DNA from: Arenicellales bacterium
GTDB taxonomy: Bacteria; Pseudomonadota; Gammaproteobacteria; Arenicellales; JAJDZL01
Length of the DNA stretch: 64,000 bases
Assembly: GCA_965220395.1 (NCBI GenBank)
Contig: CBDCPT010000003.1
Location: 136,747-200,746 of the forward strand
Reading direction: 5' to 3'
In this document: positions 812 through 56,302 of the stretch, one piece after another
Position numbering within the stretch: position 1 is the stretch's first letter
Layout: every line of letters begins with the position of its first letter
Translations under genes and position numbers: made by a program
Notes under the pieces: model-generated
Database searches by the model: none
Told to the model about the DNA's origin: nothing
Seen by the model: the letters and a program-made list of their open reading frames with translations, nothing else

Positions 812-1003
812 CTAAGACTGCAGCTTTTTTAGCAGCCTTGAGAGCGAGATTACCGTTACGTAATCGTCAGTTGGAAATTCATCACTTCCCCATACACAAC
901 GTATTTTCTGGTGGCTCCAATTAATTTACATATCTGATTGCAATGCTTGCTAATTTTTGGAGCTATGCTGTATTTTACTTCGATTGCTAGGATTTCGGTG
1001 GAC
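812..1003 (-). pseudogene. 3' remnant of AAA_14/DUF4143 ATPase, paralogous to 61934..63136
   Basis: Nucleotide similarity of ~800-1003 to ~61922-62126 (e.g. aatctaagactgcagct vs aatctaagactgtagct; gatttcggtggac vs gatttcagtggac). Confidence 0.85.
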
Positions 1004-1047
1004 TCATAATCCATTGGTCGAAGGTTCGAGTCCTTCCGGGCTCACCA
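998..1047 (+). pseudogene. 3' half of tRNA(CAT), Ile2/Met type; att-site remnant
   Basis: gtgga-ctCATaa-tccat (anticodon arm), gaagg-ttcgagt-ccttc (T arm), cgggctc-a-CCA. No D arm or 5' acceptor strand upstream. Confidence 0.9.
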
Positions 1048-1171
1048 AATTTTTCAATCACTTATGTGATTTCACAAAAAATAGTCATTCATTAGTCGTA
1101 CAAATTTATCGAAAACACTGAGAAGCTAGTGTAGTAAGTATGCAATAATTGGACGCATCAAGGTTGAAAGC

Positions 1172-3481
1172 TCAGGCTTTCGAAATGTAGATCTGTTCGG
1201 GTTTCGCAATGCCATACCCGGCCATTTCCGCTTCGGTGAATTTGTGTTCGGTGGCGGGAGCAAAGGGAGTTTCATCAAGAAAGCGCTTAAGAACATTGGT
1301 TGTAATGCAAGCTACGTCGTTTTTGTAGTCTTCGTGAGAAAGGCTGCCAGACCATGCGATGGAGCCGGTGGAGAAGACCGCACCACCGCTAGGTGTTTCG
1401 AAAAACACCATCTCAGCCCGGATAATTTCTGCCTCTGTTCCCCCAAGACCCGGCGCCGGGTCATTCATGTCTTCAGGCGTCATCAGGTAAAGATCTGAAT
1501 GACGTTCGGAGGAAGCAAGTACAAGCGTATGCGGCGGTGTGCCCAGCGCATGGTTAGTGGCGTCCAGTTCAAGGCCAGCGGCCCCACCACCTGCCAAGCC
1601 GTACTCGCCGACGACCGGTCCTTCGACTCCCCCAAAAACAAAGGCCGCACGCGGGTCGCGACTAGCTTCTCGGATAACGTAAGGTGACGAGTAGTCGAAT
1701 CCCTGCGAAACCATACCGATTCCAACCAATTCATTGGGCGGTCGGCCATTGCGCCGCCAAAGCCCCGTATACTCGCCTGTGAAACTGGAGTAGAACTCCC
1801 CCGGTAGAGGAGCAAAGGCGCGAATGCCATCTTCAGATTTTCGACATTCAATAACACCTGGCAGCGTCGGATGATAGGACACTCGCCAGTAGAACCCATT
1901 GCCCCCAAGGTACATAAGGCGCCCGCCTCCATCCAGATATGCCTGGAGGCTATCCAGCATCCTGGCAGAATAATACTCCGGATGTGTTCCAGTGATCACT
2001 GCTCTGTAGCCCTCAAGCACTTCGGAGCCTTCGGCTTCAAGATCTTCGTCTGCAATAACATCAAACGGTTGGTCCAGTTGCTCAAGCCAGTCAAGAATGT
2101 GTGTATCAGCGTTAAACTGCCACAGATTTGAACCCGCACCTCCAAGGTGGCCGATTTGTTTTGGTTGCATATTGACAATCGGTCTCAGGCGCGATGAGTA
2201 AAACACACCACTCCCGTCATTGTGCAAATCATAAAAACAGAGGCCGATTTCGGGATGCGTTTGCATAAAAAGGTCGATTGAATTCATCTGAATTAGGCGC
2301 CCGGTAACTATTTCCGTCTCCGGTACATCAATCCCCATTCGATTATTCGCATAAGCCATGTAACTGGCAGTTGGCAGGATAAATGCTACCGGTGCGGTCT
2401 TTGTGCCACGGGGAGGGCGAACCGAAAAGGGTATGTAGTATTCCTCGCTTCCGCTATGAAGGTGAATAGCATATACCCCACTGGAAATGTTGTCTGGCAG
2501 TCTGATTTCAAAATCTGATACCCAGGCGCAGTCATAGAGATCGTCATCGTGGAAATGGATTGCGGCATAATGTTCCGGTTTTTTATGCCAGCAATGTTCG
2601 CTTCCGTTCCACGCATGACCACATACCCCTCGCGTTGGAAGATTGACCAAATAGCCATGTAGTTGGTTGCCTGATTTGTCGGTGATTTGCTCAGTTGATA
2701 TTCCGACGGAGAAGTCCCAGGCGGCAACAAGATCTTCGCATTCTGTGCCCACAGGATTTTCCATTTCTTCCGTTCTTAAGGAACGTGAAAAAATTTTCGA
2801 GGCTTCAATGCGGCCATTAAAGTGTTCTATCGCGGGTTGGCTAGTCGCCGACCGCGCAGCGATCATTATCGGAGCCTCAATATCGGCACAGATCATGTTG
2901 GCGGAAACATTGCGGGACATTTTGCACGCGACATTCACCTTTGGGTAGGGTTTCAGTAGTTTCTGAACAACGGTGAGAGTGCCATTTTCTACATCGTAAC
3001 TACCACTAATTAAGTACCATCTTTCTGAAATTAACGGTATTCCTGTGGAAATCCCCTCGCTCTGTCCTTTCTTTTTAGTGATTTCAAATGCAGCAGCGCC
3101 TTCAGAATCCAGATAAAGTCTAAATCCCGCTCCCGATTCCGGGTCCTCTCGACTCAATATGATTTGTGAACCACGACCTGGCAAGGTTGGCCAAATGAGC
3201 GCTTGCAAACCCAATGAAGTCTGCGTATTGAACGCTGGTGCGTCGTCAATCACCGCATAGGAACCTGAATTTATGGGCTGATATCGACCATCAAAAGGAC
3301 CGCCAAGATTCAGCGAAACGGATTCCTCACGATATCCCGGACCTGATGGATTAATATCGCCCTGAATGACTCTGATGAGGTTCGCATCGAATTGTTCCAA
3401 TCCTTCGCAACTGACCATAACCTGAATGCATTCCCCCGGAGCGGCGCTGATGCGGTCGGCGTATCCAAGGATCCGAGTCAT
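1172..3481 (-). CDS. N,N-dimethylformamidase beta (large) subunit family protein
   Basis: Start MTRILGY at 3481; motifs HYAAIHFHDDDL, TASYMAYAN, YDLHNDG, GTHPEYYS, YLGGNGFYW and a LamG-like central domain. Confidence 0.9.
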   Translation of the reverse strand: MTRILGYADRISAAPGECIQVMVSCEGLEQFDANLIRVIQGDINPSGPGYREESVSLNLGGPFDGRYQPINSGSYAVIDDAPAFNTQTSLGLQALIWPTLPGRGSQIILSREDPESGAGFRLYLDSEGAAAFEITKKKGQSEGISTGIPLISERWYLISGSYDVENGTLTVVQKLLKPYPKVNVACKMSRNVSANMICADIEAPIMIAARSATSQPAIEHFNGRIEASKIFSRSLRTEEMENPVGTECEDLVAAWDFSVGISTEQITDKSGNQLHGYLVNLPTRGVCGHAWNGSEHCWHKKPEHYAAIHFHDDDLYDCAWVSDFEIRLPDNISSGVYAIHLHSGSEEYYIPFSVRPPRGTKTAPVAFILPTASYMAYANNRMGIDVPETEIVTGRLIQMNSIDLFMQTHPEIGLCFYDLHNDGSGVFYSSRLRPIVNMQPKQIGHLGGAGSNLWQFNADTHILDWLEQLDQPFDVIADEDLEAEGSEVLEGYRAVITGTHPEYYSARMLDSLQAYLDGGGRLMYLGGNGFYWRVSYHPTLPGVIECRKSEDGIRAFAPLPGEFYSSFTGEYTGLWRRNGRPPNELVGIGMVSQGFDYSSPYVIREASRDPRAAFVFGGVEGPVVGEYGLAGGGAAGLELDATNHALGTPPHTLVLASSERHSDLYLMTPEDMNDPAPGLGGTEAEIIRAEMVFFETPSGGAVFSTGSIAWSGSLSHEDYKNDVACITTNVLKRFLDETPFAPATEHKFTEAEMAGYGIAKPEQIYISKA

Positions 3482-3482
3482 G

Positions 3483-3797
3483 TTACAGTTCCTGTTCGAG
3501 ATCCTGCCCGGTGTGTGCCTTCCACCGGAGTTTAAATACCTCCCACTCCGCTTCGATAAGACTCGTGAACTCCAGGTTATTTGTGATTTCAACTGGTTGA
3601 CCCCGATCAGCGGGTAGACGCCCGAGAACCCAGCGTCTAAAAGGCTCTTTCACAACCAGGACATATTTCCCGGACTTGGGACCGCCTCGCAGGAGGTTTA
3701 ATACTCTTTGTAACCCAGGTCTTGGTATGCCGAGCGGGTCAGCACGGAATTCTGCAGCGTGCTTGAGATCGTCATTGGTGATTCGATATCTGGACAT
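3483..3797 (-). CDS. Putative dimethylformamidase-like small (alpha) subunit
   Basis: 104 aa directly upstream of the beta subunit; EFRADPLG..LQRVLN..GKYVL..AEWEVFKLRW pattern. Confidence 0.7.
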   Translation of the reverse strand: MSRYRITNDDLKHAAEFRADPLGIPRPGLQRVLNLLRGGPKSGKYVLVVKEPFRRWVLGRLPADRGQPVEITNNLEFTSLIEAEWEVFKLRWKAHTGQDLEQEL

Positions 3798-3809
3798 GGG
3801 TTAATCCCG

Positions 3810-5180
3810 CTAGCTACCGATAACTTTTTCGATGGTAATTTGAAGCTTGTCGAAAAGTTCGTCGATCTGACACCGGGTAATGATGAAAGGTGGGGCGACG
3901 ACAATTGCCTGTCCAATCGGTCGGCATATCAGTCCAGTTTCCAATGCCACGTTTGCAATCTGTTCTGCTACTGGCTGCTCGGGTGGGAATGGTGTCTTGC
4001 ACCCTTTGTCACCTACCAATTCCAACGCCCCCATCAATCCGATGCCGCGGGCTTCGCCGATGTGTGGATGTGATAGGAAACTTAATAGTCGCTCCTGGAA
4101 ATAAGGGGAAACGGCGACGATATTGTCGAGTACACCTTTATTCAGAATGATATCAATCGCTTTTAGTGCGATCGAACAACCTACCGGGTGGCCGGCCGTC
4201 GTATAGCCGTGTGGGAACTCCTCGTATTGTTTGGCTGCTTCATTGAGTTTCTCGGCAATAGACTGAGAAACCATGATTGCACCCATCGGAAAGTATCCCG
4301 CTGTTATACATTTTGAAGCGACCAGGATGTCTGGTTCTATATCGTAAGTCTGGCAGCCCCAGACTCGTCCGGTACGCCCGAACCCGCATATGACTTCGTC
4401 GGCAATCAGAGGTATGTCGTATTTTTTAAGGACCGGTTGGATGGCCTCAAAGTAACCTTCTGACGGAGGGATCACACCGCCGGCGCCCATAACAGGTTCG
4501 GCGAAAAAACCGGCAATGGTGTCGGGTCCTTCCGCCTCGATCTGCGCCTCCAGGTTACGGGCGCATCGAACAGAAAATTCCGGCTCGCTCTCTCTTTCGT
4601 TGGCGTATCGCCAGTAGTGCGGGCAATCTGCAAAAAGGAAGCCGTCAAGTGGTAAACCGAAAGCGTCGACGTAATCCTTGCCGGTCATGCTCGCTGTAAT
4701 TCCCGTAACGCCGTGATAAGCGTTCTTGCGGGACAATATTTTGCGACGGTGAGGTTTGCCCAAACCACGGTTAATCATCCATAGCATCTTCACTACGGTA
4801 TCGTTGGCTTCGGATCCCGAATTGGTAAAAAACACCTTGTCCATTGGCACTGGTGCGATTTCGAGCAGCTTTTCGGACAGAGCTACAGCGGGCTCACTTA
4901 TGCGCCCGAAGAATGCGTGATAGGTCGGGAACTTATGATATTGCTCGCATGCAGCTTGTACCAGATCCGGGTGGCCAAATCCGACCACCATGTTCCAGAG
5001 CCCAGAGTTTCCTTCAAGGTAACGCTTGCCATGTGAATCTTCGACATACACTCCTTCACCTCGCGACATCACGACGGGGCCACTTTCTTGGAGGGTGCCA
5101 AGATGAGTAAAACCATGTAGTACGGACTGGAGATCGCGTGTTTCCCAGGATTCGGGGCAATGTGAGCCATCAGATGTCAT
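3810..5180 (-). CDS. Class III (omega) aminotransferase
   Basis: FTNSGSEAND, AYHG, AEPVMGAGG, DEVICGFGRTG and PLP-lysine ASK motifs; start MTSDG at 5180. Confidence 0.92.
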   Translation of the reverse strand: MTSDGSHCPESWETRDLQSVLHGFTHLGTLQESGPVVMSRGEGVYVEDSHGKRYLEGNSGLWNMVVGFGHPDLVQAACEQYHKFPTYHAFFGRISEPAVALSEKLLEIAPVPMDKVFFTNSGSEANDTVVKMLWMINRGLGKPHRRKILSRKNAYHGVTGITASMTGKDYVDAFGLPLDGFLFADCPHYWRYANERESEPEFSVRCARNLEAQIEAEGPDTIAGFFAEPVMGAGGVIPPSEGYFEAIQPVLKKYDIPLIADEVICGFGRTGRVWGCQTYDIEPDILVASKCITAGYFPMGAIMVSQSIAEKLNEAAKQYEEFPHGYTTAGHPVGCSIALKAIDIILNKGVLDNIVAVSPYFQERLLSFLSHPHIGEARGIGLMGALELVGDKGCKTPFPPEQPVAEQIANVALETGLICRPIGQAIVVAPPFIITRCQIDELFDKLQITIEKVIGS

Positions 5181-5190
5181 ACACGTCTCA

Positions 5191-6276
5191 CTATGTGAAA
5201 TATTTGAGTAGTCTATTCGGATCAATTGCGCGACATACCAAGCCGGGTGGGCGTAGTGTCGTCATATCTTCGGCCGCCAACATCGCGTTGATGACAGCCT
5301 CTTCGATCGCTTCGGTTGCTGCCATGTAAATTGGGTCGAACAATTCATCATTGATAAAATCCATTCTCAACCTTGAACCCGCCATTTGAGGGAGGGGGAC
5401 GCGATTTGCAGTACTGAAGGCGAGACAAATATCGCCCGAATTGTTGCCCCCAGGTGTTCCTCCTCGCCCAATTCCGATAGCGGCGCGTTTGGCCAGGCGT
5501 TGCAATTGATGTGGCGCCATCGGCAAGTCAGTGCCGAGAATGACTATAACCGAACCGTGTTCACGGCTCATCAATCGGTCCTCCGGCATCGTACTGCCGA
5601 CCGGTCGACCCAATACGGTTAACCAGGGTCGCAAACCGTGGTTCGCCTGAACCAGCGATCCGAGAACAAACTCGTCACCATCGATTTCCAGGCATCTTGA
5701 GGAGGTTCCTGTCCCTCCTTTGAACTCGTAGCAAATCATTCCGGTTCCACCGCCAACGTTTCCTTCAGCAATTGGTCCGGATGTTGTTGAGTTCAAAGCC
5801 AAGAGTGCGTCTTCTTCAGTTATGTGTTGTCCGTTGATGTCGTTCAGAACGCCATCATAGGTTTCAGCCACGACGGGCATAGCCCACAGATGCTCGGACT
5901 GCCAGGCATCTGCATAGTTCTGAATAGTCCATTTGACGGCCGCATGGTGGACCATGCCGATGCTATGGGAATTGGTAATACAAATCGGTCCTACAAAGTA
6001 ACCACCGTCCCGAATCCAGTGAGTGCCGGTCATCTCTCCGTTTCCGTTAAGCGCATACATCCCAGCCCAGACCGGTTGCGGGTCCGGTCCGCGCCCGAGC
6101 GGCAGGATCGCGGTAACACCGCTTCGTACCGGGCCCTTTCCTTGCACGAGCGGTCCTTCCCCTTCAATTCTTGTGCAATAACCAACCTCTACTCCCGGGA
6201 TATCGGTTATTGCATTGTGTTCACCTGTTCTGCCCGGGAAAGGCAGCCCAAGTTCGCGTCCACGTAGCTTATTCAT
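5191..6276 (-). CDS. P1/DmpA (peptidase S58) aminopeptidase
   Basis: NAITDIPGVEVG, NGNGEMTG, EGNVGGGTGM, GS autoproteolysis site (HGSVIV), NNSGD. Confidence 0.9.
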   Translation of the reverse strand: MNKLRGRELGLPFPGRTGEHNAITDIPGVEVGYCTRIEGEGPLVQGKGPVRSGVTAILPLGRGPDPQPVWAGMYALNGNGEMTGTHWIRDGGYFVGPICITNSHSIGMVHHAAVKWTIQNYADAWQSEHLWAMPVVAETYDGVLNDINGQHITEEDALLALNSTTSGPIAEGNVGGGTGMICYEFKGGTGTSSRCLEIDGDEFVLGSLVQANHGLRPWLTVLGRPVGSTMPEDRLMSREHGSVIVILGTDLPMAPHQLQRLAKRAAIGIGRGGTPGGNNSGDICLAFSTANRVPLPQMAGSRLRMDFINDELFDPIYMAATEAIEEAVINAMLAAEDMTTLRPPGLVCRAIDPNRLLKYFT

Positions 6277-6280
6277 TTCA

Positions 6281-7102
6281 TTAGGACCGCTTGCGAAAGT
6301 AAAGGCCTAGCGAGGCGATTAAGAAGGAGAAAACCAGCATTAGCGAGGCAATTGCGTTGATTTCGGGTTTGACGCCACGCCTCAACATGCCGTAGATAAA
6401 AACGGGCAACGTTGTTGAGTCCACGCCTGCAATGAAATATGTGATCACAAGGTCGTCCATTGAGATGATGAATGCAAGCAACGCTCCGCCAACAATGCCG
6501 GGCAGAATCTGCGGTAGCGTGACTCGCCTGAATGTGGTCCAGGGATTGGCGCCCAAGTCTGCAGAGGCTTGTTCCAAAGTGTCATCCATTCCTGCCAAGC
6601 GGGCACTTACTACGACAAAAACATAGGATATGAGAAACGTGCAGTGCCCAATCATAATCGACATAAGCCCGAGTTTTATGCTGAAGTTTACGAAAAACAC
6701 TAACAATGCAATTCCAAGCACGATGTCTGGCATTACCATCGGCATGTAGAGCAGGCCTTGGTAAAAAGGTTTGAACCGGAATTGATGTCGGTAAACAGCC
6801 AGGGCAGTGGTAGTTCCGACAATTGTTGCGAATGTCGTGGTACTTGCGGCAACCAGCAGACTATTCTTTAAAGCTGACACCAGTTGATCAGTCGACTCGA
6901 CATACAAGGTTTGCTCGGTAAGTTTTGTCGGATAGCCAAAAATTGAAAAGTACCAGTCCAAGGTAAAATCTTTCCACACCATCATATTGACCGGGTGGCT
7001 GTTGAAAGAATAGACAACGACGATAATTATCGGTGCGTAAACAAAGAAAAGAAAAAGCAACCCATGCACACTCAACAGGCATTTCAACCATGGATGCTTC
7101 AT
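6281..7102 (-). CDS. Polyamine-type ABC permease (PotC-like)
   Basis: Start MKHPWL at 7102; EAA loop EQASADLGA; SMDDLVIT and PEINA motifs. Confidence 0.9.
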   Translation of the reverse strand: MKHPWLKCLLSVHGLLFLFFVYAPIIIVVVYSFNSHPVNMMVWKDFTLDWYFSIFGYPTKLTEQTLYVESTDQLVSALKNSLLVAASTTTFATIVGTTTALAVYRHQFRFKPFYQGLLYMPMVMPDIVLGIALLVFFVNFSIKLGLMSIMIGHCTFLISYVFVVVSARLAGMDDTLEQASADLGANPWTTFRRVTLPQILPGIVGGALLAFIISMDDLVITYFIAGVDSTTLPVFIYGMLRRGVKPEINAIASLMLVFSFLIASLGLYFRKRS

Positions 7103-7370
7103 TTGACGATCTCCGAACGACCGATTCGCCTTAGATAGAAGACGATCAACAGAAGCATTACCAGCATGATCATTACGGAAAGAGCCGATCCGAACGGCCA
7201 ATTCCTTGCCGACAAAAACTGTTGTTCGACCAGATTTCCGATCATCAGAACTTTTGCCCCTCCTAGCAGGTCCGGGACAATGAAGTTTCCAAGGCTCGGA
7301 ATAAAGACAAGCACTGCCCCGGCTGCTATTCCGGGAAGCGTCATCGGTAGAATTACCCTTAAGAAGGTTT
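7099..7370 (-). pseudogene. 3' fragment of PotB-like ABC permease, 5' truncated
   Basis: LVFIPSLGNFIVPDLLGG..NWPFGSALS; similarity ends abruptly near 7370, before the divergent ATPase. Confidence 0.8.
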
Positions 7371-7514
7371 AACATTGACTCAATGGAAGCAGCTATTTTA
7401 CCAAGATAATATTTGATATCCTCCCAATTATCATGTCTAATAATCCTATTCATCATGGCTTATAATTCCATATATCATGACATACATATCCAATTTCCAA
7501 AGGTAGAGGGCGAT

Positions 7515-8738
7515 ATGTTTGAGCGCTTTGTGGAGCGGCAAACAAAAGAGGCTTTGTCGGATACACCCGTGGTCCTGGTTACAGGACCACGCAGGGTTGG
7601 CAAGACAACGCTAGTACGTAAGTTTGAAGGGACGCACCGAAGAACCTACGTCACGCTGGACGATCCGGTTGTGTTGGACGCCGCTCGGTCCGACCCCGTT
7701 GGTTTCATCCGCGCTTTGGATGTAGCCATCATTGACGAAATTCAACGAGCACCCGAATTGTTGCTGGCAATCAAAAGGGTAGTTGATGAAGATTATCGCC
7801 CAGGTCGCTTTCTGCTGACCGGGTCCGCGAACGTAATGACCTTGCCCAAAGTGGCTGACAGTTTGGCAGGCAGGATCGAAGTCATCCAGATGTTGCCGTT
7901 GGCTCGCGCGGAAATAGCAAATGTTGCCCCAACTTTTCTGGAGCGTCTGTTCAATGGCAAACTGGAGTCGGATTGTGCGGCTGTCGTTGGCGATGATTTC
8001 GTCCGACTAGTGTTGCTCGGAGGGTATCCGGAAGCTATCGTACGGGAAAGCGAACGCAGACGTCAGGCCTGGGCGCGATCTTACGTGTCTTCGATATTGT
8101 CCCGGGACTTGAGCGATGTCGGTACCGTCGAGAAACTGGCCGAACTTCCAAAACTTGTCCGGGTACTGGCACGGCACTCAGGGCAGTTGGTCAACTACTC
8201 CAGATTGGGCTCCAGCATTGGTGTCAACCATAAGACGGGACAGCGCTATATAACGTTACTGGAGCAGATTTTCCTTATCTCGACATTACAACCCTGGTAC
8301 ACGAATGCGCTGAAACGGATTGTCAAGACGCCCAAACTACATTTTCTAGACTCCGGCGTGCTTGCAGTTCTGCGTGGGGTGAATTTTGACTTTGTCAGAA
8401 CCAATCGCAGCGAGTTCGGTGCGCTCCTTGAAAGTTTCGTGTACTCGGAAGTGCTGAAACTCATCACGGCGACCGATCTGCAGTTGTCGGCTTATCATTT
8501 CCGGGATCAGCAAATGCACGAAGTGGATATTGTTCTGGAACGGGACGATGGCATGATTGCGGGTATCGAAGTCAAGGCATCAGCAACAGTCAGTTCGCGA
8601 GACTTTGCTGGCCTTCGGACCTTGGCTACGGCGTGCAAGGGGCGTTTCGCTTGCGGTGTCGTGCTTTACGACAGCGCTGATTTCGTGCCGTTTGCGGACA
8701 ATTTGGCAGCAGTGCCGATGTCATCCCTTTGGGCGTAA
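7515..8738 (+). CDS. AAA_14 ATPase with DUF4143 domain
   Basis: GPRRVGKT Walker A, IIDEIQ Walker B, LTGS, KTPKLHFLDSG, C-terminal EVD..IEVK. Confidence 0.9.
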   Translation: MFERFVERQTKEALSDTPVVLVTGPRRVGKTTLVRKFEGTHRRTYVTLDDPVVLDAARSDPVGFIRALDVAIIDEIQRAPELLLAIKRVVDEDYRPGRFLLTGSANVMTLPKVADSLAGRIEVIQMLPLARAEIANVAPTFLERLFNGKLESDCAAVVGDDFVRLVLLGGYPEAIVRESERRRQAWARSYVSSILSRDLSDVGTVEKLAELPKLVRVLARHSGQLVNYSRLGSSIGVNHKTGQRYITLLEQIFLISTLQPWYTNALKRIVKTPKLHFLDSGVLAVLRGVNFDFVRTNRSEFGALLESFVYSEVLKLITATDLQLSAYHFRDQQMHEVDIVLERDDGMIAGIEVKASATVSSRDFAGLRTLATACKGRFACGVVLYDSADFVPFADNLAAVPMSSLWA

Positions 8739-8909
8739 GAAATATCAAGTCGCGCGCATGAATATACCAACACATTCTGTCGAAAGCCGTATGTACAAAG
8801 CAGTAATCAATTGTCTATACGTTGTAGAACGACATATCAAGATTATTCCGATTATCTTGCACGAAACATAGTCGGAATAAAATCGACTATCTTTTCCGAT
8901 GTGCTAGTT

Positions 8910-9601
8910 TCAATTTTCAAATTGTCGAATCTTAATCAGATTGGCAATTTCGAACCAATAAACTGGGTTCCAGAATCGATTGGCAGAAATTGAACTAGAC
9001 GGAAGTGCAAATAAATTAGTATCACCAATTTGAACATCTAGGAGTCTGCGCCACAGAAAAGCTCACGAACAAGTAATGAGATTAGACCATCATTTATTGG
9101 CTAATTTTTGCAATTAACCCCACTTGAATTACATTTTTCGACTGAAAATAACCTTGGAATACTACTTTGTTGGCTGAAAATTGTCTAATAAATTTCTGTG
9201 GCGCAGACTCCTAGGCGCCCATATGCAACTTTATTTTTGTATAGAAATATTTCTGCCGCTTTCTTTCCGTTGAAACCAACAACATATGGTTGCTACTCTA
9301 CAATTTTCTTGCGAAAAGCAAAGAGGTCGTGATCTTCTCGTTGTAGATCTTTATCAAGTCCACTAATTTTTTTTGCAAGATCAGTCAATCCAATTCCAAA
9401 ATCCGTCAGACTCCAGTAATTTTGAGATTTCAACTCAATTTGCGTAAGCCCAGTTTCTTTTAGAATTGACCAAAACTTATTCCCACGACCAGCGTAATAG
9501 GATTTGATTTTGGAAGAATTTCTACCGACTGCTGTCCCACAAACAACTAAATCTAGTTCAAAGCGCATAAGATCAGGAAGAATTTCATTCTTGTCACTCA
9601 T
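8910..9601 (-). pseudogene. Mismatch-specific (MUG/TDG-like) DNA glycosylase with stops and a MITE insertion
   Basis: CGTAVG..YYAGRGNKFW..GLTDL. Continues past a TAG at 9293 (VGFNGKKAA). After removing the MITE it reads YGRLDVQIGDTNLFALPSSS..FW. Confidence 0.8.
9042..9210. mobile_element. MITE, 169 bp, with 18-bp TIR GAGTCTGCGCCACAGAAA and CTAG target duplication
   Basis: TIRs at 9042-9059 and 9193-9210; CTAG at 9038-9041 and 9211-9214. Excision restores the local MUG reading frame. Confidence 0.9.
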
Positions 9602-9671
9602 GTCTCGCTCCATACTTTATGAATCTAATTCCAATCGTATAATTATTCCAATAATTCAAAGGCATTACTAA

Positions 9672-10319
9672 ATGACTCAAATATTTACTGATCGCCCCAA
9701 GTCACTTGCTGATGATATGTGCAGACAAAATCGTATTGAATTGTTATCGGAACCACATATAAAACCTCTCATCAAATTTGTTCAAGAAATACGAACGAAC
9801 AAAGGTCCAAACTACTCTATTCCATTTTTTGACCCGTTGGACGGAGGAGTACGAAGCAAAATCTTGTTCGTTCTTTTAGCACCGGGGCCACAAGCAGTAA
9901 AAAGTGGCTTCATTTCTCGCAACAATCCTGATTTGTCCGCAAAGAATATGTTTGAACTTCTTGCAGAATCTGGGTTTAGCAGGTATGAGACTGTCCTTTG
10001 GAACATAGTCCCTTGGTATATTGGGAACGAAAAGAAAATTCGCCCTCCAGTTCAATCCGAAATTGTAGAAGGTTCATTTTACCTAGAGCGCTTGATGGAT
10101 CTTTTGCCTAATCTTGAAGCTATTGTTCTAGTAGGGGAAAAAGCATGGAAAGCTGAGAAGCTGTTAAAAATTAACTCGAGAATCAGAGTCTTTAATAGTA
10201 ACCATCCCAGCCCTCTGTTTGTTAATCGTAAACCGGGAAATAAATTTCGTATTTTGACTGTGTTTCAAATGGTTAGAACATATGTTAGTAACTCAACAAC
10301 CAATTTTTCTAATCAATAA
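9672..10319 (+). CDS. Uracil-DNA glycosylase superfamily protein
   Basis: PFFDPLDGG, APGP..SGFISRNNPD, WNIVPW, HPSP motifs. Confidence 0.8.
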   Translation: MTQIFTDRPKSLADDMCRQNRIELLSEPHIKPLIKFVQEIRTNKGPNYSIPFFDPLDGGVRSKILFVLLAPGPQAVKSGFISRNNPDLSAKNMFELLAESGFSRYETVLWNIVPWYIGNEKKIRPPVQSEIVEGSFYLERLMDLLPNLEAIVLVGEKAWKAEKLLKINSRIRVFNSNHPSPLFVNRKPGNKFRILTVFQMVRTYVSNSTTNFSNQ

Positions 10320-12195: not shown

Positions 12196-12211
12196 TCGCC
12201 ACCTGTAATTA

Positions 12212-16635: not shown

Positions 16636-16642
16636 GTGATGT

Positions 16643-40880: not shown

Positions 40881-40889
40881 TGAGTAACG

Positions 40890-46974: not shown

Positions 46975-47160
46975 CATTTGGTTGCCTCGCAGCACAGCAG
47001 GAACTGTTTATCTATGGTCATTTCTTGAATGGAATCCTAGTGCGGCTTGGTAACACCTCATTTGGGCCATTGACAATGCCGCTGATTATGGTGGCGACAT
47101 GAAAGATATTTCTGGTGAAACTTCGGATGATTAATCCGCTTCCTTCGAATTCCAGACAAT
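46975..47160 (+). pseudogene. 3' remnant of DUF2791 ATPase upstream of the helicase
   Basis: PRSTAG..FLEWNPSAAW*HLI..GGDMKDISGE aligns with PRNTVT..ILKQNPTAVWSDLI..GDDMSDISDGE of 52103..53407. Confidence 0.7.
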
Positions 47161-49328: not shown

Positions 49329-49953
49329 TCAGCATGACGGTACAAGCGAATTCTAACAGTAATCCGCCTGTGGCAGATTGCGAATCTGTTTCCTGTTGAT
49401 CGCGTCAGCAAACTAGTTGAAACGAAAAATCAAGTTGATGCTGCTGGTCTGTGAGATGTCGTCAAGTACCGAAATTGAATAATGTGCTCAGAGCAATCAA
49501 TCTGTAACCTCACCAATTAATTCGTTTCGGCCACTGTTCGTACAAGCATATTGAAATGAAATTCCGTTTCGATGTAGAGAGTAAAATACAGTACTCGAAT
49601 AACCCAGCCGATTTGTATGGCTGAAGAATCGGATGGAGCGTTGATTGTTACTATCGATTTAACGCAGTCAGTCCATCAAGCTGAACTGCCGATTGAAAAA
49701 GAGTGCTAGTGATATTCGCAGTATCAAGGAATTGACGGCCAATGCTTCCGATTCGAATTATCAGTAGAATGATTGTTTTGTTATGAATCGTCTATATGAC
49801 AGATATGCAGTCGCCGTATTAATTGACGCTCAAAACAACCATATCTGACATACATGGCTGGCTGTTGCAAACAATGCAGCTGAATACCTTTGAAATGCCA
49901 GTTGATGCGTAAACTCGATAAACTTTGCCAGGGCTAAGGGATCAATTAGGAAA

Positions 49954-52113
49954 TTGAAAAAGAAAAAGAAAGGAAAATCAAGAACCATAAAAGCCAGTAG
50001 ATCTTCACGGTCTCGAAGGTCGAATAGAAAGTACAAAAGTCGGTCCGTCAGAGCGAAGGGTCCCTGGGTTCCGTTCGGACAAACGGCAACGGTTGCAGGG
50101 CACAACATCTGGGATATGGTCTATGTCGGAAGACCTCCGATATTTGAAGACGGTATAAGGGCAGACAGTGGATTTATAGACCCCCATCTGCCTGTTGCAA
50201 GAACAGGTATTGACTATCATGGCGACGGGATATATTACTGGCCGCCTAACTACACTGATATGTCCAAGCAATCTCGTGCAGCCTATTTGTATTGGCTGGC
50301 CAGCGGTCGCTCCAGCACCAATTACAGTACAAGCTATGTGCTGTTGTACTTTATCGGACTAGAGAGGCGATTTTTCTTCGACACCGCACCCTTGGAGGAA
50401 AAAATATTAATAATCACTGAAGTAGAACGTCTTTTGGAAATATATGGCGATGACTCGGCTTTGGAAAATTGTTTAGGGAATTTCGTCAGTGCAGCCAAGC
50501 TAATAATGGGATTGGATCAGAAAATCGCACCATCTGTCAAGTATCAGCAATCAGGTTCCTATACCTCCGTACTCGCTACCATAGGTATTATGGCGGATAT
50601 GAAAAAACCACTGAACGGTGAGCAACTGCTGAACTGGTATTTGGTAACGTATAGCTTACGTTCTGCTACCCTCCGCATTTTTCCTGAATTCAAGGCGCTT
50701 TTCATTTCGCTTTTCGATGAGAAATATCCGCAAGGATTGAAGATCCATGTCTCAGATTGCCACGTCAGCATCACTTATCTCGCGATTTCGTTCAACTATC
50801 GAATTGACCTAAGTGATTTCATTGGCCCCATTCCTGATGTTTCAGATCAAGCCAGACCTCTATTTGACGCCGACTCGCTTGCTGACGAAGCTGAAAAAAC
50901 TCTTGAGGGGTTCGGTCGATATTTGGGAAACAGTCCCGAACGTCGAGAAACGATTAAAGCATATGCGCTGTTGCCCGCACGAATTCGGGATCAATTTCCC
51001 TGCAGAGAAGCGGAGGAAATCTCGTCTTGGGCGAAAAAGCTAGTCAATAGCAATGCATACATTCAGGCGGAAAAGATTATTGAAAAACTTGAAGGCAGGC
51101 CGTTCGAAAGAATTAGTAGAGCACAGTTGACTAAAGCTGTGGACAAATTGGCATATCTGTCAATCGGTTTGGCGCCTGATCCGAGGTTCACGTTGTACAG
51201 CCTGAAGCCCGAGGATTCGGTAGTTCTATATCAACTGCCTGAGGCCACGATATCACTTGACGAAGCCAGCGAGAACTACTGGAGCACTTATCAAAAACTG
51301 ACTATTGCCTGTTTTGTCGCTCATTCAGATGGGCATGTTTCTGCGCGGGAACGAAGCCAACTGAATACACTAATTTCAACCAAGAAATTAACACCAGCTG
51401 AAAATATCCGATTGGGAGCTAACTTTCGCTGGATGCTCTTAGTACCGCCCAAGCTGCCAATGATACGGCAGAATCTGAAAAAACTGCCTGAACTGTCTAG
51501 GCAGGATCTTGGACAAATCGCTTTGTCAATGGCAGTAGTTGATGGCACAATTCCTCCGGAAAAAGTGGAAGCAATAACAACGATTTATAAACTGCTGGAA
51601 TTGGATGTTGCCAACGTATACAACGACTTGCACTCGCAATCCATCGGAAGCGAACCAGTAATCGTCAGATCCGCAAGCAACGGACAACAGGCATTTGCAA
51701 TTCCATCAACTCGCGAACGAAATACCAAGTTTGAGCTTGATTCCATACGGATTGATTCTGTCATGGACGACACTGCCCGAGTGTCAGCAGTACTGGGAGA
51801 TATTTTCGTAGACGACAAGCAGGATATCGAGTTCGACGAACGCAACGATGAAACCGAACTCTTACCTGGATTGGACTATCAACATGCAGCGTTTGTTGTC
51901 GAACTAATCGATCGCAGCCACTGGGAGGATGAAGAATTTGAACGGCTTGCAGCCCAGTTCAATCTGATGCCGGGAGGCGCGTTGGAAACACTGAACGAAT
52001 GGGCGTTTGAACAGTTTGAGGAAGCATTGATTGAGGAATATGAAGGTTATAATCTCAACTCGGATGTGGTGGTAGCAGTTAAACACAATTTGAGAACAGA
52101 ACATGGTCCATAA
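49954..52113 (+). CDS. TerB-N / TerB / TerB-C domain protein
   Basis: YWP.Y......RAAYL.WLA.GR, YFIGLERR, AHSDG, LMPGGALETLNEWAFE; start uncertain. Confidence 0.85.
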   Translation: MKKKKKGKSRTIKASRSSRSRRSNRKYKSRSVRAKGPWVPFGQTATVAGHNIWDMVYVGRPPIFEDGIRADSGFIDPHLPVARTGIDYHGDGIYYWPPNYTDMSKQSRAAYLYWLASGRSSTNYSTSYVLLYFIGLERRFFFDTAPLEEKILIITEVERLLEIYGDDSALENCLGNFVSAAKLIMGLDQKIAPSVKYQQSGSYTSVLATIGIMADMKKPLNGEQLLNWYLVTYSLRSATLRIFPEFKALFISLFDEKYPQGLKIHVSDCHVSITYLAISFNYRIDLSDFIGPIPDVSDQARPLFDADSLADEAEKTLEGFGRYLGNSPERRETIKAYALLPARIRDQFPCREAEEISSWAKKLVNSNAYIQAEKIIEKLEGRPFERISRAQLTKAVDKLAYLSIGLAPDPRFTLYSLKPEDSVVLYQLPEATISLDEASENYWSTYQKLTIACFVAHSDGHVSARERSQLNTLISTKKLTPAENIRLGANFRWMLLVPPKLPMIRQNLKKLPELSRQDLGQIALSMAVVDGTIPPEKVEAITTIYKLLELDVANVYNDLHSQSIGSEPVIVRSASNGQQAFAIPSTRERNTKFELDSIRIDSVMDDTARVSAVLGDIFVDDKQDIEFDERNDETELLPGLDYQHAAFVVELIDRSHWEDEEFERLAAQFNLMPGGALETLNEWAFEQFEEALIEEYEGYNLNSDVVVAVKHNLRTEHGP

Positions 52114-53407
52114 GCAAATCAAACCGCGGGAACGCGATGCGATTATTCAATCACTGTACGCTGGCGTAGTGCCCAAGTTGGGATTGCAGCATATTCAAGT
52201 GGGTCGAGCACGCGAGATTGAGGAACTGGTAAAAGATATTGACCGAATCCGCGACGGCGGTGCGGCGATTCGATTCGTGATTGGCGAGTATGGATCAGGA
52301 AAGACATTCTTCCTGAACTTGATCCAACTCGTCGCATTGGAAAAAGGAATGGTGGTCATGTCTGCCGACTTGGCGCCCGCTCGACGAATTCATGCATCGG
52401 GAGGACAGGCTCGATCTCTGTACGCAGAAATGGCGCGTAATGTGTCGACTCGAACAAAACCTGATGGTGGCGCCATGGCTTCAATCGTGGAACGCTTCAT
52501 CAGCCAGGCAGTACGCGAAGCACAGAAGAGCAACCGCGAACCGGCTGAGGTGATCCATGACAAACTGGCCCGTCTGGAGGAGTTGACAGGCGGATTCAGC
52601 TTTGCTACTGTGGTAACGCAGTACCTGGATGGCTTCAATTCTGGGAATGATCAACTCAAATCATCTGCATTGCGCTGGCTGAGAGCGGAATTCTCTACTA
52701 AAACCGAGGCTCGTTACGCACTTGGCGTGCGTACGATTGTTGACGACGCAAGCGTGTACGACCATCTCAAGATATTTGCGGAATTTGTGTGTGAGGCCGG
52801 ATATCAGGGACTCGTCGTGTCACTGGATGAACTAGTAAACATTTACAAGTTGATGTCATCGCGCGCTCGCGATGCAAACTTCGAGCAGATCTTACGCATA
52901 TTGAATGATGTGTTGCAAGGCAGTGCGAGTCACATGGGATTCATTTTCGGTGGGACGCCGGAGTTCCTGATGGACACCCGCCGCGGTATGTACAGCTATG
53001 AGGCTCTGCAGTCCCGATTGGTTGAAAATTCTTTCGTACGAGACAAGTTTGTCGATTTTGCGGGTCCTGTGATTCGGCTTTCCAACCTTGCACCCGAGGA
53101 TGTGTACGTTCTTTTAATGAATATCCGTCGAGTGATGCAGTTTGAAACTGATGAGTTTCCAGACGAAGCACTCAAAGGCTTCATGCAACACTGCGCAGAT
53201 CGAATTGGTGAGGCATATTTTCGGACGCCTCGCAATACCGTAACTCAGTTCGTACACCTACTATCCATTCTGAAACAGAATCCGACGGCCGTCTGGAGTG
53301 ACTTGATTCGTAGAGTTGATATTAGCAAGGACGAAGGGGATGATATGAGCGATATTTCCGACGGCGAAGACGATGAACTTCAGTCCTTCAAACTCAAAGC
53401 TGTTTGA
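52103..53407 (+). CDS. DUF2791 / BrxD-like ATP-binding protein
   Basis: AGVVP..GL..IQVGR..E, GEYGSGKTF, LDELVN, YSYEALQSRL. Confidence 0.88.
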   Translation: MVHKQIKPRERDAIIQSLYAGVVPKLGLQHIQVGRAREIEELVKDIDRIRDGGAAIRFVIGEYGSGKTFFLNLIQLVALEKGMVVMSADLAPARRIHASGGQARSLYAEMARNVSTRTKPDGGAMASIVERFISQAVREAQKSNREPAEVIHDKLARLEELTGGFSFATVVTQYLDGFNSGNDQLKSSALRWLRAEFSTKTEARYALGVRTIVDDASVYDHLKIFAEFVCEAGYQGLVVSLDELVNIYKLMSSRARDANFEQILRILNDVLQGSASHMGFIFGGTPEFLMDTRRGMYSYEALQSRLVENSFVRDKFVDFAGPVIRLSNLAPEDVYVLLMNIRRVMQFETDEFPDEALKGFMQHCADRIGEAYFRTPRNTVTQFVHLLSILKQNPTAVWSDLIRRVDISKDEGDDMSDISDGEDDELQSFKLKAV

Positions 53408-53465
53408 AGGACCTGAAATTACATCCAAGCTAGTTCATCGGTGATCATGGCCCAAATGGGAATTG
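53373..53465 (+). pseudogene. N-terminal stub of a second Lhr-like helicase
   Basis: MNFSPSNSK..SKLVHR*SWPKW resembles MINPLPSNSR..AKPVQRWIWQKGW. Confidence 0.5.
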
Positions 53466-54077
53466 CCGTTGAAGAATTCATTAGCAAACAGGAACACTGC
53501 AATGAATTTCAGAACGTCAGAACGATTTGGATACGACGATATTGTTGCATCCTGATGCCCTTTTTTGACAACATAATCGTGATCGTTCAAAGTCGTTGGA
53601 TGGACAATTTGCATTGCTCCGCTCCGGTGAACTTGCAGGTTGTTACCCGTTTTGTTCAGTTGTGTAAGGGGAATCGCACCGTGTTTACACAGGGTGCGAT
53701 TCTTTTTATGAAAGTCTGTCTTGGGCCATGTTCGAGGTCGCGAAAATGAGCATGCTGCTGTTTCGATTTATTTCGACAAATTCTCGTTTCGACGCGAATT
53801 ATTGCAGGAAATTCACGGGGTTCTTCACTGGTTTAATTTGGGATACTACAATCCCGCTGAACACTCAGCAGTCACAAACTGGCTGCGTTTGAATGCATGG
53901 TTCGCAGAGGCTCTGCAGAACCTATAATCAAATTTATAATGAGTAAAATCTTGTCTGAATGTCCGGGTGTTCCGTGCAGATTCGCCTTGTTGCCACAAGC
54001 GGGAATCGAGATATGTCGTAGAGGGATGCGACCAGAAGACAAATTTGATTTATTGTTGACTTCTTTATTGGCACCCC

Positions 54078-54656
54078 ATGAGTGAACGAGTAATAGGCGT
54101 ACGCATCGAACTTCGGGATATTGAGCCGAAGATCTGGCGGCGAATTGAAATTCCTGTCAACGTTTCGCTGACCACGCTGCACGATATCATCCAGACCGCA
54201 TTTGATTGGGATGGTATCCACTTATCGGGATTCCAGATCAAAAGCGAGTTCCATACCGTACCTCACTTCTATGATTATCCAGAGGATGATGATCATTGTA
54301 CTGACGATATCTGTTTGGAAGATGTTGTTGGCTCCGGAATAAAGCGGTTTAGCTACATCTATGATTTTGGTGACAATTGGGAGCACATAATCATTCTTGG
54401 AAAAGTACGCGTTACCGATTATGCCGTTGACTATCCCAAGCTTCTCGGTGGCGCCCGTTGTGCCCCAATTGAAGATACCGGAGGCATTTTCACGTACTGC
54501 GAGTTTCTTAAAGCACAGAGTGATTCAGATTGTGAACTAAATGACGACTATGATGAAGATGATCCGGTGTCGTGGTTGAAGGCAATGGAGTTCGACCCGG
54601 AAAAATTCGACGAAGCCGGTCTAATCAATAAACTTAAGAAAATTGGTATGCCGTAA
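54078..54656 (+). CDS. Plasmid pRiA4b ORF-3 family protein
   Basis: PKIWRRI..LHDIIQ.AF.W...HL, YIYDFGDNWEH, PIEDTGG. Confidence 0.88.
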   Translation: MSERVIGVRIELRDIEPKIWRRIEIPVNVSLTTLHDIIQTAFDWDGIHLSGFQIKSEFHTVPHFYDYPEDDDHCTDDICLEDVVGSGIKRFSYIYDFGDNWEHIIILGKVRVTDYAVDYPKLLGGARCAPIEDTGGIFTYCEFLKAQSDSDCELNDDYDEDDPVSWLKAMEFDPEKFDEAGLINKLKKIGMP

Positions 54657-55399
54657 GCATACTTTGACCTGTAGTTAAAGCTAGAGAGTTCCAGCAATAC
54701 TGCCGACTAATTACTTTCGTGTCAGCATGGTTTTGTGGGGTATCCATGCGAGTGGAGTAAATTGAATTGCTGCTACAAAGGAGTTGTTTCGCTGAAATTA
54801 CATGCTGTATTCATTGGTACTAATCCAACCTCAATTCTGTCGAGATCGGTCTTATTGTCAAAGCAGATTTGGCAAGCGGTTCCGGTGCGGACTTCAGGCC
54901 AACTTGAAACCCGACCAGATCAAAACGGCGTTCCTCGTACCTTTCGTAAAGCCAAGGCAAACTCAATACAATCGACATTAAAATATTCGTTTTTAGATGT
55001 GATTAGAAGTGTTTTACACTCGATTTCACCAACCGATTCAACGCATAGCCAGATGCACCGATTCTGATCTGCTCATACCTGCGAGTTGAAGGAAAAAAAC
55101 AGGTGCAAAGAATACCCCAAAGCCGCTAAAAATTCAGAATATCTGACATTGCAACAATTCAGATTGATATCTCAAACACCAGACACAGATCCGTTCCAGG
55201 GTCGTTCAGACCCTCTCTGGTGGCGACCTCGCAAAGCACATGAAAAATTCGGTTGCAGCGCGGCTTCACCATGGACTGGAAGCGTGCGGCGAGCTGTTTG
55301 CGCGATGGGCAGGGGATCAGATCGGTCGGCATCTGGACACCGCTTTGAGAAATATGCGCCCGTGTCTGGTGCAGTCAAAGACAACTGCTCCAGCAGTTC

Positions 55400-55720
55400 T
55401 TTTTCAACCCGCGATGCGCATCACTCGCAATTTGAACGTCACGCCATCCATTGACGAGCAGCCCAGTCCGACGGAGAGATAGCGTTGGGCGGGGCAAGGA
55501 TTTGTCACACAAATCAGGATGTTCAATAGCTTCAAGGAGTAGTTTCACAACATCTACGACTTGCTCGTCGACTGCTATGCCATGTTCGAAGAACACTCCC
55601 AACAGCCGGTTCACAAGGGCGATCCGAGTGTTGCTTTGGGTGTCATTCTCCCCTGGAATTTCTTGCAAAGCACGTCGAAGGAGTACATAAACGTAACGAG
55701 CCAGGATTTCAGAGCGGTCG
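55400..55720 (-). pseudogene. Probable N-terminal remnant of a PLD/helicase (DUF3427-type) protein
   Basis: IALVNRLL..LPRPTLSL..TGLLVNG..D.QI pattern, matched from memory. Confidence 0.4.
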
Positions 55721-56250
55721 GCTACGGCACGCTCATTCGTAAATATTTAGATTTTCGAACAATTCCTCAGCGGTATCGAATTTCTCCAATTCGCCAGTTT
55801 CTGCTTCTTGCATTGCTCCAAGAGGTTCCGCATTGAGAGTTAACGGAACGAGTGGTAGCTGCTTTTCTTTCGCAGTTCAGACGAGCAGAATTCGAACTGC
55901 GTCAGACATTGTGACGCCCATGCCGCAAGTACGGTCGTTGCTTGTTGTTTTATGACTTCGTCAATGGTGGCGCGAACTACAGAGTTCTTGGCCATCATCA
56001 ATTCCTCAATCGTGGATTTGAACCTAACTATTCCCGTACTATATTTATGTTTGGCACTGGTTTGTCATATGTGTGTATTCCAATATCGAACGATTGTTCA
56101 TTACATTTCGTTGTAGTTGGGTACGATGGGCGAGGTGGTCAAATTCCGTTTATCCATAAAAGGTAAATTACTACATTGGAAAGCATCTCCCAATCTGATT
56201 AATAGTTTTGTCTTGATGGGGAGGAGTTTTCTCGGCTAAGTTGAAGTGAA

Positions 56251-56302
56251 TTTGAATGGGCAGTTCAGTAAGGGTTTGAATTCTGTCCGTCCGTGCCCGC
56301 CA
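56251..56302 (+). repeat. tRNA-3'-derived att-like repeat R6
   Basis: tttgaatgggcagttcagta-agggtttga-attct-gtccgtccgtgcccgcca; similarity to R1 extends about 30 bp further upstream. Confidence 0.8.

Follow-up and report, generated by a model that had tools for sequence, protein, structure and literature searches.

A tandem array of integrase-less cassettes behind a tRNA-Met gene of an Arenicellales bacterium, probably built by a tRNA-targeting large serine integrase

The closest known counterparts of the array described here are the ssrA islands of Dehalococcoides, reported in 2011 (PMC3146451), which lie in tandem downstream of a tRNA or tmRNA gene (tDNA) and are bounded by repeats of its 3′ end. 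As the relevant part of that report describes them, the repeats are 20 bp of the tmRNA end, 15 of the 31 islands have no integration module, and DsiB, a serine recombinase of 540 amino acids (aa), is encoded on the reverse strand beside attL. The same source presents the staphylococcal cassette chromosomes (SCC/SCCmec) at rlmH (orfX), with their recombinases CcrAB and CcrC, as insertions of large serine recombinases at the 3′ end of a conserved gene, forming tandem stacks that include recombinase-less cassettes and have short repeats as boundaries (PMC3146451). Here we analyse a 64,000-nt stretch of the genome of an Arenicellales bacterium (assembly GCA_965220395.1, contig CBDCPT010000003.1, positions 136,747 to 200,746; the window), in which cassettes of unrelated content are separated by short tRNA-like sites. 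The window probably holds the distal part of a ~166-kb island that was built at the 3′ end of a tRNA-Met(CAT) gene by elements using a large serine integrase (LSR), a view that rests on comparison of sequences. Tandem islands built by LSRs at a tDNA are a known kind, and this array is a variant of them.

The likeness to the ssrA islands, as far as the description in that report goes, extends to a serine recombinase of ~540-570 aa encoded on the reverse strand at attL and to a consistent base difference between the gene and the repeats; a further likeness listed is that all repeats lie on one side, within ~100 kb (PMC3146451). The ssrA islands have in addition a small second recombinase, DsiA, whereas no second serine recombinase of the DsiA/CcrA type stands beside the LSR among the 12 PF00239 matches of the genome analysed here. 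Unlike the ssrA islands as reported, the LSR family found here targets, besides tmRNA, true tRNA genes (Met, Val, Glu and Ala), and its inverted arms and the 5-bp offset between attP and attB are not described in the part of that report that deals with the islands (PMC3146451). The SCC target is a protein-coding gene and its recombinases come as a ccrA/ccrB pair, whereas here the target is a tRNA gene, there is a single LSR gene and about 19 junctions follow. Ccr recombinases are promiscuous toward several pairs of sites.

Six sites on the + strand of the window, ending at positions 14892, 16737, 19748, 21476, 41419 and 56302, read a[atg]ggtt[ct]g[ag] followed by 5 nt (attct, ctaca, attga, acacg, attga and attct, in this order) and by an 18-nt tRNA-like end. 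They are co-oriented, align without a single gap and divide the window into blocks of 13.8, 1.8, 3.0, 1.7, 19.9 and 14.9 kb. A degenerate pattern written for them matches the window four times against 0.00 expected (100 shuffles); the sites ending at 21476 and 56302 are more diverged, fall outside this pattern and were identified by direct reading. The sites, their register of 9, 5 and 18 nt and the block sizes given in an earlier note on this DNA are all present, and the register is not random. What the earlier note made of them, namely tRNA mimics with an insert in the T-loop, serving as a substitute for the attC sites of integrons, does not hold. Their resemblance to a tRNA T arm and acceptor end with CCA would also fit structured tRNA-like RNAs or terminators acting in cassette expression, which we consider scarcely credible given that Rfam at gathering thresholds and aragorn return no match in the window, that no 5′ acceptor strand precedes any of the six sites and that their consensus fold amounts to -2.3 kcal/mol with 5 pairs, none of them covarying. 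As there is no attC-like fold, the term integron-like describes a functional analogy only, and mobilisation of the cassettes in trans is a proposal.

The intact tRNA(CAT) that the earlier note had predicted upstream on the + strand was found at positions 26842-26918 of the same contig (C3; the window is C3:136747-200746), 110 kb upstream of the window. It is the sole tRNA gene of C3 and ends ...tccttccgggcccacca, ...GGTTCGAGTCCTTCCGGGCCCACCA. Downstream of it about 19 sites follow on the same strand over ~166 kb, so that the window covers the distal 56 kb, about the distal third, of the array. A regular expression for the last 11 nt of the tRNA occurs at 22 places of the genome, 15 of them on the + strand of C3, the tRNA itself included. 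A 55-nt profile was trained on 15 C3 sites, which match it by construction, and was run at E<1e-3 against this genome (G000) and the arrays of two relatives (G022 and G015). It gave 62 matches, all but one gap-free, and 57 of these are left-hand arms of the kind seen in the window (P arms), with GTTCG and CCACCA in the same columns in 52. In G000 there are 32 P-arm matches: 19 on the + strand of C3, 2 on its - strand, 7 on contig C1 and 4 on contig C4; those on the + strand added by the profile include 62449, 75707 and 282967. Most of the matches outside the + strand of C3 adjoin other tRNA or tmRNA genes, and the motif is thus not scattered in both orientations. The same arm family is seen at a tmRNA (C1:135728-136089, with sites at C1:187214-212706), at C1:790-795 kb beside a tRNA-Val gene (complement of 795069-795143) and at C4:1392-1401 kb, and the cores of the C1 and C4 arrays match their own tDNA genes (e.g. 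..CCACGTCCACCA).

The P arm has a mirror image. Directly after the CCA of tRNA-Met, and at C3:39809, 44374 and 46357, the reverse complement of the arm follows (P′; for example TCGCAACGTATCCGAAC), and the profile matches on the minus strand lie right behind the tRNA CCA (C3:26954-26920) and behind site 39809. P′ arms also stand behind the tmRNA and the tRNA-Val of this genome. Where a P arm meets a P′ arm, at C3:39809 and 46357 and in three loci of other genomes (L040, L091 and L100), the distance from GGTTCG to CGAACC is 48 bp and the junction is symmetric about CCGKGC/CCACCA, the slash marking the centre. At tRNA-Met the corresponding distance from the GGTTCG of the tRNA to the CGAACC of P′ is 43 bp. 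This tRNA-to-P′ span, measured by regular expression with no match at 2 of 50 loci, is identical in 46 of the 48 measurable LSR loci of other genomes, the remaining two being one base longer and one base shorter; therefore the deficit of 5 bp lies on the tRNA side. Counted from the centre, GGTTCGA(A) is found at positions 24-17 of the P and P′ arms but at 19-13 of the tRNA, while positions 1-11 are alike.

A shift of this size is known from the attachment sites of serine integrases. According to the sections on attachment sites of Rutherford et al. (2013; PMC3783163), the motif of the zinc-ribbon domain stands in attB 5 bp closer to the central dinucleotide than it does in attP (bp 16-24 of attP becoming attB bp 11-19), the recombinase domain contacts the same inner positions in both sites, and a minimal attB is ~10 bp shorter than attP. 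The phage enzymes dealt with there (A118/LI, Bxb1, phiC31) share with the system described here the domain set, a palindromic attP of ~48-50 bp, the motif 5 bp nearer the centre in attB and a non-palindromic central dinucleotide (PMC3783163). Phage serine integrases mostly target protein-coding genes, whereas in the present system the universal T-loop of a tRNA or tmRNA serves as the attB half-site; moreover, in contrast to them, integration here regenerates only ~6 nt of the tDNA gene. The 9+5+18 geometry of the window sites appears in this light as the normal difference between attP and attB half-sites, the tRNA being of the B type and the sites of the P type: the same motif, 24 bp out in P and P′ and 19 bp out in the tRNA, accounts for the fixed 5-nt insert. 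Each site is, as read from its sequence, an attR-type junction in which a central CC links a P arm to the terminal bases of the tRNA. These few bases are all that the tRNA contributes; what lies to their left, the additional 5 nt and the greater part of the 18-nt end included, is the attP half-site of the element itself. The zinc-ribbon domain presumably reads the T-loop motif GGTTCGA.

At the position 3 nt to the left of the centre, 32 of the 57 P arms have T and 19 have G; the tRNA has G there. A crossover to the right of this position would keep the difference with the P arms, and it would then be at the CC of GC/CC. Inverted arms around a 12-nt direct repeat (CCGKGCCCACCA) could also be left by transposons with terminal inverted repeats, casposon-like or of the DDE type, inserting behind the tRNA with a target duplication of ~12 bp. 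Such a duplication would, however, copy the G of the tRNA, not the T of 32 arms; the element ends carry no conserved transposase or Cas1, the conserved gene being that of the LSR, and we regard this origin as very improbable. Further out than the inner motif, at a distance of ~38-46 bp from the centre, the P arms have a second conserved one, TTYGAAAgG (window 14838-14850, with matching columns in the other arms). It resembles the TTCGAA of the inner motif, and the P′ arms do not have it.

The gene that abuts the tRNA encodes the LSR, of 571 aa (C3:26853-28568, - strand); it is convergent with tRNA-Met and overlaps the tRNA 3′ end. Its domains are PF00239 Resolvase (E 5e-28), PF07508 Recombinase (1.8e-22) and PF13408 Zn_ribbon_recom (2.4e-8), and a search of PDB sequences matched its catalytic domain only (resolvases and the catalytic domain of TP901-1 integrase). 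Arg8 and Ser10 are invariant in an alignment of 8 homologues, and we take them to be the catalytic residues, an assignment also drawn from a passage on Bxb1 and phiC31 (PMC12884075). Open reading frames of 187 and 502 aa beside the LSR gene have no Pfam match. The genome encodes a second LSR, of 570 aa (C3:309747-311459, - strand), which is 24% identical to the tRNA-linked one. The first element of the array, C3:26919-39809, consists of matched P′ and P arms with the intact LSR between them and carries also an SMC/AAA ATPase, a DNA methylase, an endonuclease VII-like protein and an IS1595 transposase, whereas phage genes were not seen there. Truncated LSR C-termini were detected by tblastn directly behind the P′-bearing junctions of C3 (39798-40211, 44357-44575 and 46346-47029), and further C-terminal remnants lie on C1 by tRNA-Val (794826-795125), by tmRNA (136057-136110) and at other sites, and at one site of C4. 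Over C3:46346-47016 the identity to the LSR end beside the tRNA of G022 is 99.1%, an agreement with another species-level genome that points to recent transfer.

No integrase lies within the blocks, as the earlier note had observed: none of the 50 PF00589, 2 PF07508 and 12 PF00239 matches of the genome falls in the window, and tblastn with eight LSR proteins found no LSR remnant there. That one recombinase family stacked the units, as it proposed, agrees with the P-arm family and the LSR; the tyrosine integrase it looked for does not, since an LSR adjoins the tRNA. Tyrosine integrases would otherwise be the usual suspects, displacing tRNA 3′ fragments that would then have come to share one 5-nt insertion by decay or copying. 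In favour of this the window does contain a genuine fragment free of the offset (998-1047, described below), and the genome has those 50 PF00589 matches. None of them, however, lies between C3:26.9k and 51k or adjoins tRNA-Met, the tRNA-abutting gene encodes an LSR in this genome and likewise at 50 of 74 loci from others, and the insert is part of an inverted-repeat arm that is mirrored after the CCA. The account is already contradicted by this and has very little probability left. Islands of the type sought by Islander need a collinear fragment and a tyrosine integrase, in contrast to the six sites with their 5-nt offset in a window devoid of PF00589; according to the Islander paper itself, targeting of tRNA genes by serine integrases is not known (PMC4383910). 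The PF00589 matches of C3 amount to two three-gene clusters and one 305-aa multi-copy gene. The clusters are trios of adjacent tyrosine recombinase genes in near-identical copies (C3:51110-53486 and 120956-123340), both inside the tRNA-Met array; more trios occur at C1:147593-149984, 181625-184016 and 1713839-1716215 and at C4:121849-123353 and 187243-189634. They look like recombinase-in-trio elements, which we presume them to be.

The fragment just mentioned is the 50-nt 3′ part of tRNA-Met(CAT) at window positions 998-1047 (+ strand), which runs from the anticodon stem to CCA and ends ...aaggttcgagtccttccgggctcacca. It is of the B type: alone among the window sites it is collinear with the tRNA and has no 5-nt offset, and the profile matches it weakly and only at profile positions 24-55. 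A single base distinguishes it from the resident tRNA (GGGCTCACCA vs GGGCCCACCA), and this base falls in the dinucleotide where the crossover is placed. In G022 an ordinary P arm precedes the counterpart of the first cassette, at the place where G000 has this fragment. The genes to its left are, by Pfam, of defence type and include no integrase. In the tycheposons of Prochlorococcus (Hackl et al., 10.1101/2020.12.28.424599) the partial tRNAs are true fragments and differ in this from the six window sites. As described in the part of that preprint considered here, tycheposons resemble the present array in being tRNA-side islands with successive integrations that displace older elements inward, scattered partial sites, integrase remnants and metabolic and defence cargo; 910 of their 937 elements have tyrosine recombinases and the rest LSRs (10.1101/2020.12.28.424599). 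A further difference is that a replication module was not recognised in the present array.

The association of the LSR with tDNA extends far beyond this genome. Among 41 related genomes, G000 included, 17 have an LSR match at E<=1e-20; within the same genus the figure is 14 of 24, many of the copies having stop codons and several genomes holding more than one. A tRNA-Met, tmRNA or tRNA-Glu gene adjoins the LSR 3′ end in 11 of the 12 genus loci fetched. In a broader scan, limited to one genome per species, 74 LSR loci were obtained, and homologues 47-68% identical come from records titled Acidobacteria, Gemmatimonadota, Solirubrobacterales/Actinomycetota, Myxococcota, Methylomirabilota and others; no record of Dehalococcoidia is among the 74. 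A tDNA adjoins the LSR end in 50 of these loci, or in 50 of the 67 with a match that extends over the C-terminus, and the genes targeted are tmRNA (34), tRNA-Ala (7), tRNA-Met (4), tRNA-Glu (4) and tRNA-Val (1). Of 15 loci without a called tDNA that were read, several are P-P′ palindromes (L040, L091, L100) or tmRNA ends missed by aragorn. The P′ arm beside the tDNA is found across phyla (...GGCGGTTCGAATTCTTTGC...). A protein search in which 8000 candidates were scored gave at least 843 clusters at E<=1e-30, annotated at the source only as 'site-specific DNA recombinase' or 'recombinase family protein'. No description of this LSR family or of arms that mimic a T-loop was found in the open-access literature, supplements lying outside that search.

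Comparison with relatives, whose records are titled Arenicellales metagenome-assembled genomes, relates the sites to changes of gene content. In the 200 kb beside tRNA-Met taken from each of G022 and G015, arrays follow the tRNA, with 18 junctions in 108 kb and 7 junctions in 20 kb, respectively. Window positions 998-19748 are largely syntenic with G022 72.3-91.7 kb, apart from 7371-10717, which no listed high-scoring segment pair (HSP) covers. In both genomes the homology begins 19 nt ahead of the first junction and breaks off 1 nt short of the end of site 3. Considering the 34 ends of HSPs of >=400 bp and >=85% identity within the arrays of G000 and G022, 9 fall at G000 sites against 0.34 expected (with a maximum of 5 in 2000 random placements), and 8 fall at sites in both genomes. 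The breaks in gene content at the sites, foreseen by the earlier note, were thus borne out. Five cassettes follow each other as A, B, C, D, E in G000 (site ends 74020, 75759, 77632, 80182 and 84960) and as B, x, A, D, C, E in G022 (32681, 34907, 36695, 39243, 43547 and 45294). Cassettes are also duplicated inside one genome: the paralogous copy at C3:61884-68092 has no 1.8-kb MazE/PIN cassette, which is absent exactly from junction to junction. There, within C3:61884-62502, a site-1-like arm is directly succeeded by the sequence found behind site 2, and therefore cassette 2 is exactly what is missing.

Taking together these observations, we propose the following model. The tRNA would act as an attB-type half-site (B arm) and the incoming element would supply the attP-type half-site. 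Each site would then consist of a P arm (~32-49 bp, ...AGACAAGGTTCGAAT-NNNN-TTCCTTCCGKGC), the crossover, and CACCA plus whatever sequence previously stood behind the tRNA. New elements would insert at the tRNA and displace older ones outward; the integrase modules would later excise or decay, giving rise to integrase-less cassettes, each with a terminal P arm. The order of these events is what we infer from such comparisons, and the system may still be active.

Differences in cassette order are also seen in integrons, in which co-oriented, promoter-poor cassettes, often of a single function, carry a terminal recombination site each, toxin-antitoxin genes are common and order varies among relatives. 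The array is like them in its co-oriented and promoter-poor units, each ended by a recombination site, in the frequency of toxin-antitoxin cassettes and in its variable order. IntI, attI and folded attC are absent here, as seen from the PF00589 scan at the array head and from the folding of the sites; moreover, unlike integron cassettes, the blocks reach 20 kb with genes on both strands, and the sites are double-strand LSR half-sites. The cassettes could nevertheless behave similarly, being excised as circles between neighbouring junctions and re-inserted at the tRNA in trans by the resident LSR. This possibility, which partly overlaps with the model proposed above, is a doubtful one. It would suit the altered order, the duplicated cassettes and the one missing from junction to junction, the absence of a P′ arm at 39 of 43 junctions, the presence of only one intact cognate LSR for about 19 sites and the alternative right-hand neighbours that a single P arm has in metagenome contigs; integrase-less ssrA islands have moreover been proposed, in the part of that report concerned with them, as cis-mobilisable elements (PMC3146451). 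However, recombination of attR with attR is not performed by canonical LSRs as the relevant part of PMC3783163 presents them, neither a circle junction nor a directionality factor was seen in the assembled sequences examined, and the same patterns could arise if a stretch reaching from the tRNA to any of the downstream junctions were excised and then transferred, or by homologous recombination between ~55-nt arms that share 17-20 identical bases.

The contigs in question come from four public runs, some of those containing the stretch being labelled sponge metagenome, and were compared with window positions 13500-22500. They leave the window at 14893, 16737 and 21478, and the alternative neighbours include P′ arms. 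Joints from site to site occur as well, e.g. 14890 to 19720 and 19736 to 21465, with flanks of 23-60 nt, most of 26-31; given flanks so short and populations that are mixed, these joints were not counted as excision products. A 14-nt unit, tcgtatcgaactat, occurs twice in tandem immediately before site 2 (window 16634-16671), and one of the copies is missing, at position 16643, in contigs of three of the four runs.

Several points weigh against the proposed model of an island built by LSR elements at the tRNA: (i) the support is wholly comparative, the crossover position is taken from symmetry alone, and the joints in the contigs may reflect repeats or other strains; (ii) most cassettes start with unrelated sequence right after CCACCA, which simple integration followed by decay does not predict, since an in-register P′ arm (above 99% of the null) is present at only 4 of the 43 junctions outside the training set and no B′ half-site motif was found behind the junctions; (iii) the sole intact cognate LSR lies 110 kb from the window; (iv) 22 of the 34 HSP ends fall at no site in either genome; (v) the fragment at 998-1047, having no offset, is of unexplained origin; and (vi) the TTYGAAAgG leader lies outside the canonical 25-bp half-site and is likewise unexplained. 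Moreover, published serine integrases recombine attP with attB only, according to the part of Rutherford et al. concerned with this (PMC3783163), so that repeated insertion at an occupied tRNA needs a tolerant B′, precise excision or an attR-type activity. Among five relatives with no intact LSR there is no usable empty tRNA-Met site, three of them keeping P′ arms and two having flanks of 65-80% identity; no native right flank can be located from them in G000 or G022, and therefore the original B′ half-site is not definable.

Some of these points would be met if the array were a fossil of past serial integration, changed afterwards by RecA-dependent recombination between arms, by insertion sequences (IS) and by deletions. 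The window without LSR or LSR remnant, the stop codons in many LSR copies of the genus, the IS inside blocks, the HSP ends away from sites and the divergence of site 6 are in keeping with such a history. Against it stand the first element (C3:26919-39809), bounded by an intact LSR and matched P′ and P arms, the 99.1% identical LSR end in another genome and breakpoints within a few bases of junctions, and we hold it to be rather unlikely. The model of successive LSR-mediated insertion at tRNA-Met is preferred.

The cargo of the blocks, as determined by Pfam, is unrelated from one to the next and corresponds to that listed in the earlier note, namely amine/amide catabolism, MazE/PIN and Phd/HTH pairs, glycerol kinase, GlpD and ABC genes, and a cluster of methylase, helicase, TerB and BrxC/D-like genes. 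All six units are on the + strand. Cassette 1 (13.8 kb, 1048-14892; P arm and core at 14838-14892) encodes a dimethylformamidase-like protein, a class-III aminotransferase, a peptidase S58, an ABC permease, two AMP-binding enzymes and UDG; it is syntenic with G022 72349-86905, except for the uncovered part noted above. A 73%-identical homologue of its amine/amide catabolism block (window 1293-7370) occurs in G015 at 66142-72233 of the reverse-complemented stretch; it is inverted, ~46 kb past the array end, and is not array cargo in that genome. Cassette 2 (1.8 kb, 14893-16737; P arm and core at 16683-16737) holds a pair of MazE-type antitoxin and PIN toxin with small open reading frames. Cassette 3 (3.0 kb, 16738-19748; P arm and core at 19694-19748) encodes a triple RidA/L-PSP protein, a Phd/YefM antitoxin and an HTH protein, and has a second copy at C3:65135-68092. 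Cassette 4 (1.7 kb, 19749-21476; P arm and core at 21422-21476, with the arm variant GGTTCGGACACGTTGCGA) encodes DUF5615 and HTH/YdaS-like proteins. Several cassettes have a common left end, CTAAAAGCAATTGTGTTCAATTGC, found at window 16738-16765, at C3:62503-62515 and at 88737 and 96159 of the G022 array; it contains the inverted repeat GCAATTG..CAATTGC and may be an operator or a left-end signal.

Block 5 (19.9 kb, 21477-41419; P arm and core at 41365-41419) contains genes for a DeoR regulator, an ABC transporter, a GlpD-like oxidoreductase, glycerol kinase, an SDR protein, a beta-lactamase-fold protein and a pyridoxal phosphate (PLP) enzyme; compared with G022 it includes a 10.6-kb insertion that starts 71 nt past the preceding site. 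Block 6 (14.9 kb, 41420-56302) ends in a diverged P arm and core at 56248-56302, the last site before conserved chromosomal synteny with G022 returns, and encodes an N6 DNA methylase, an IS1595 transposase, a DEAD helicase, a TerB_N/TerB_C protein, a BrxC/D-like ATPase and PRiA4_ORF3. Within it, the genes at 43722-53407 (N6 DNA methylase, DEAD/ResIII helicase, TerB_N/TerB_C protein and BrxC/D-family ATPase), interrupted by the IS1595 transposase, form a candidate defence system. That transposase, at 45745-46740, is inside the range of the array, and a DDE transposase at 56636-58414 is just past it. Two paralogous AAA_14/DUF4143 ATPase genes lie at 7413-8738, in cassette 1, and at 61934-63136, beyond the array. 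At C3:126284-129871, an OLD-family AAA_15/TOPRIM ATPase stands beside a UvrD-like helicase, which together we take to be a Gabija-like pair; an ORC/CDC6-like protein, an HD-CE protein and a C5 methylase come next, immediately to the left of the tRNA fragment.

The published 5-bp shift between attP and attB would thus explain the pattern, and it is seen here in dozens of natural sites and at five tDNA targets. As only ~6 nt of the tRNA are duplicated, programs that look for islands by matching tRNA fragments to tyrosine integrases would overlook such arrays. We suggest, tentatively, that the LSRs form a family of many phyla specialised for the universal T-loop of tRNA and tmRNA, with attP arms that reproduce GGTTCGA 5 bp farther from the centre, and that in this genus the attR junctions may have become reusable boundaries between which a single LSR shuttles cassettes. 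With the same reserve, the array could then be viewed as a serine-recombinase counterpart of the integron, anchored on a tRNA gene. Such arrays gather defence, toxin-antitoxin and catabolic genes, and the LSR family, for which natural attB sites would be available in every bacterium, may be of practical interest for integrase tools.

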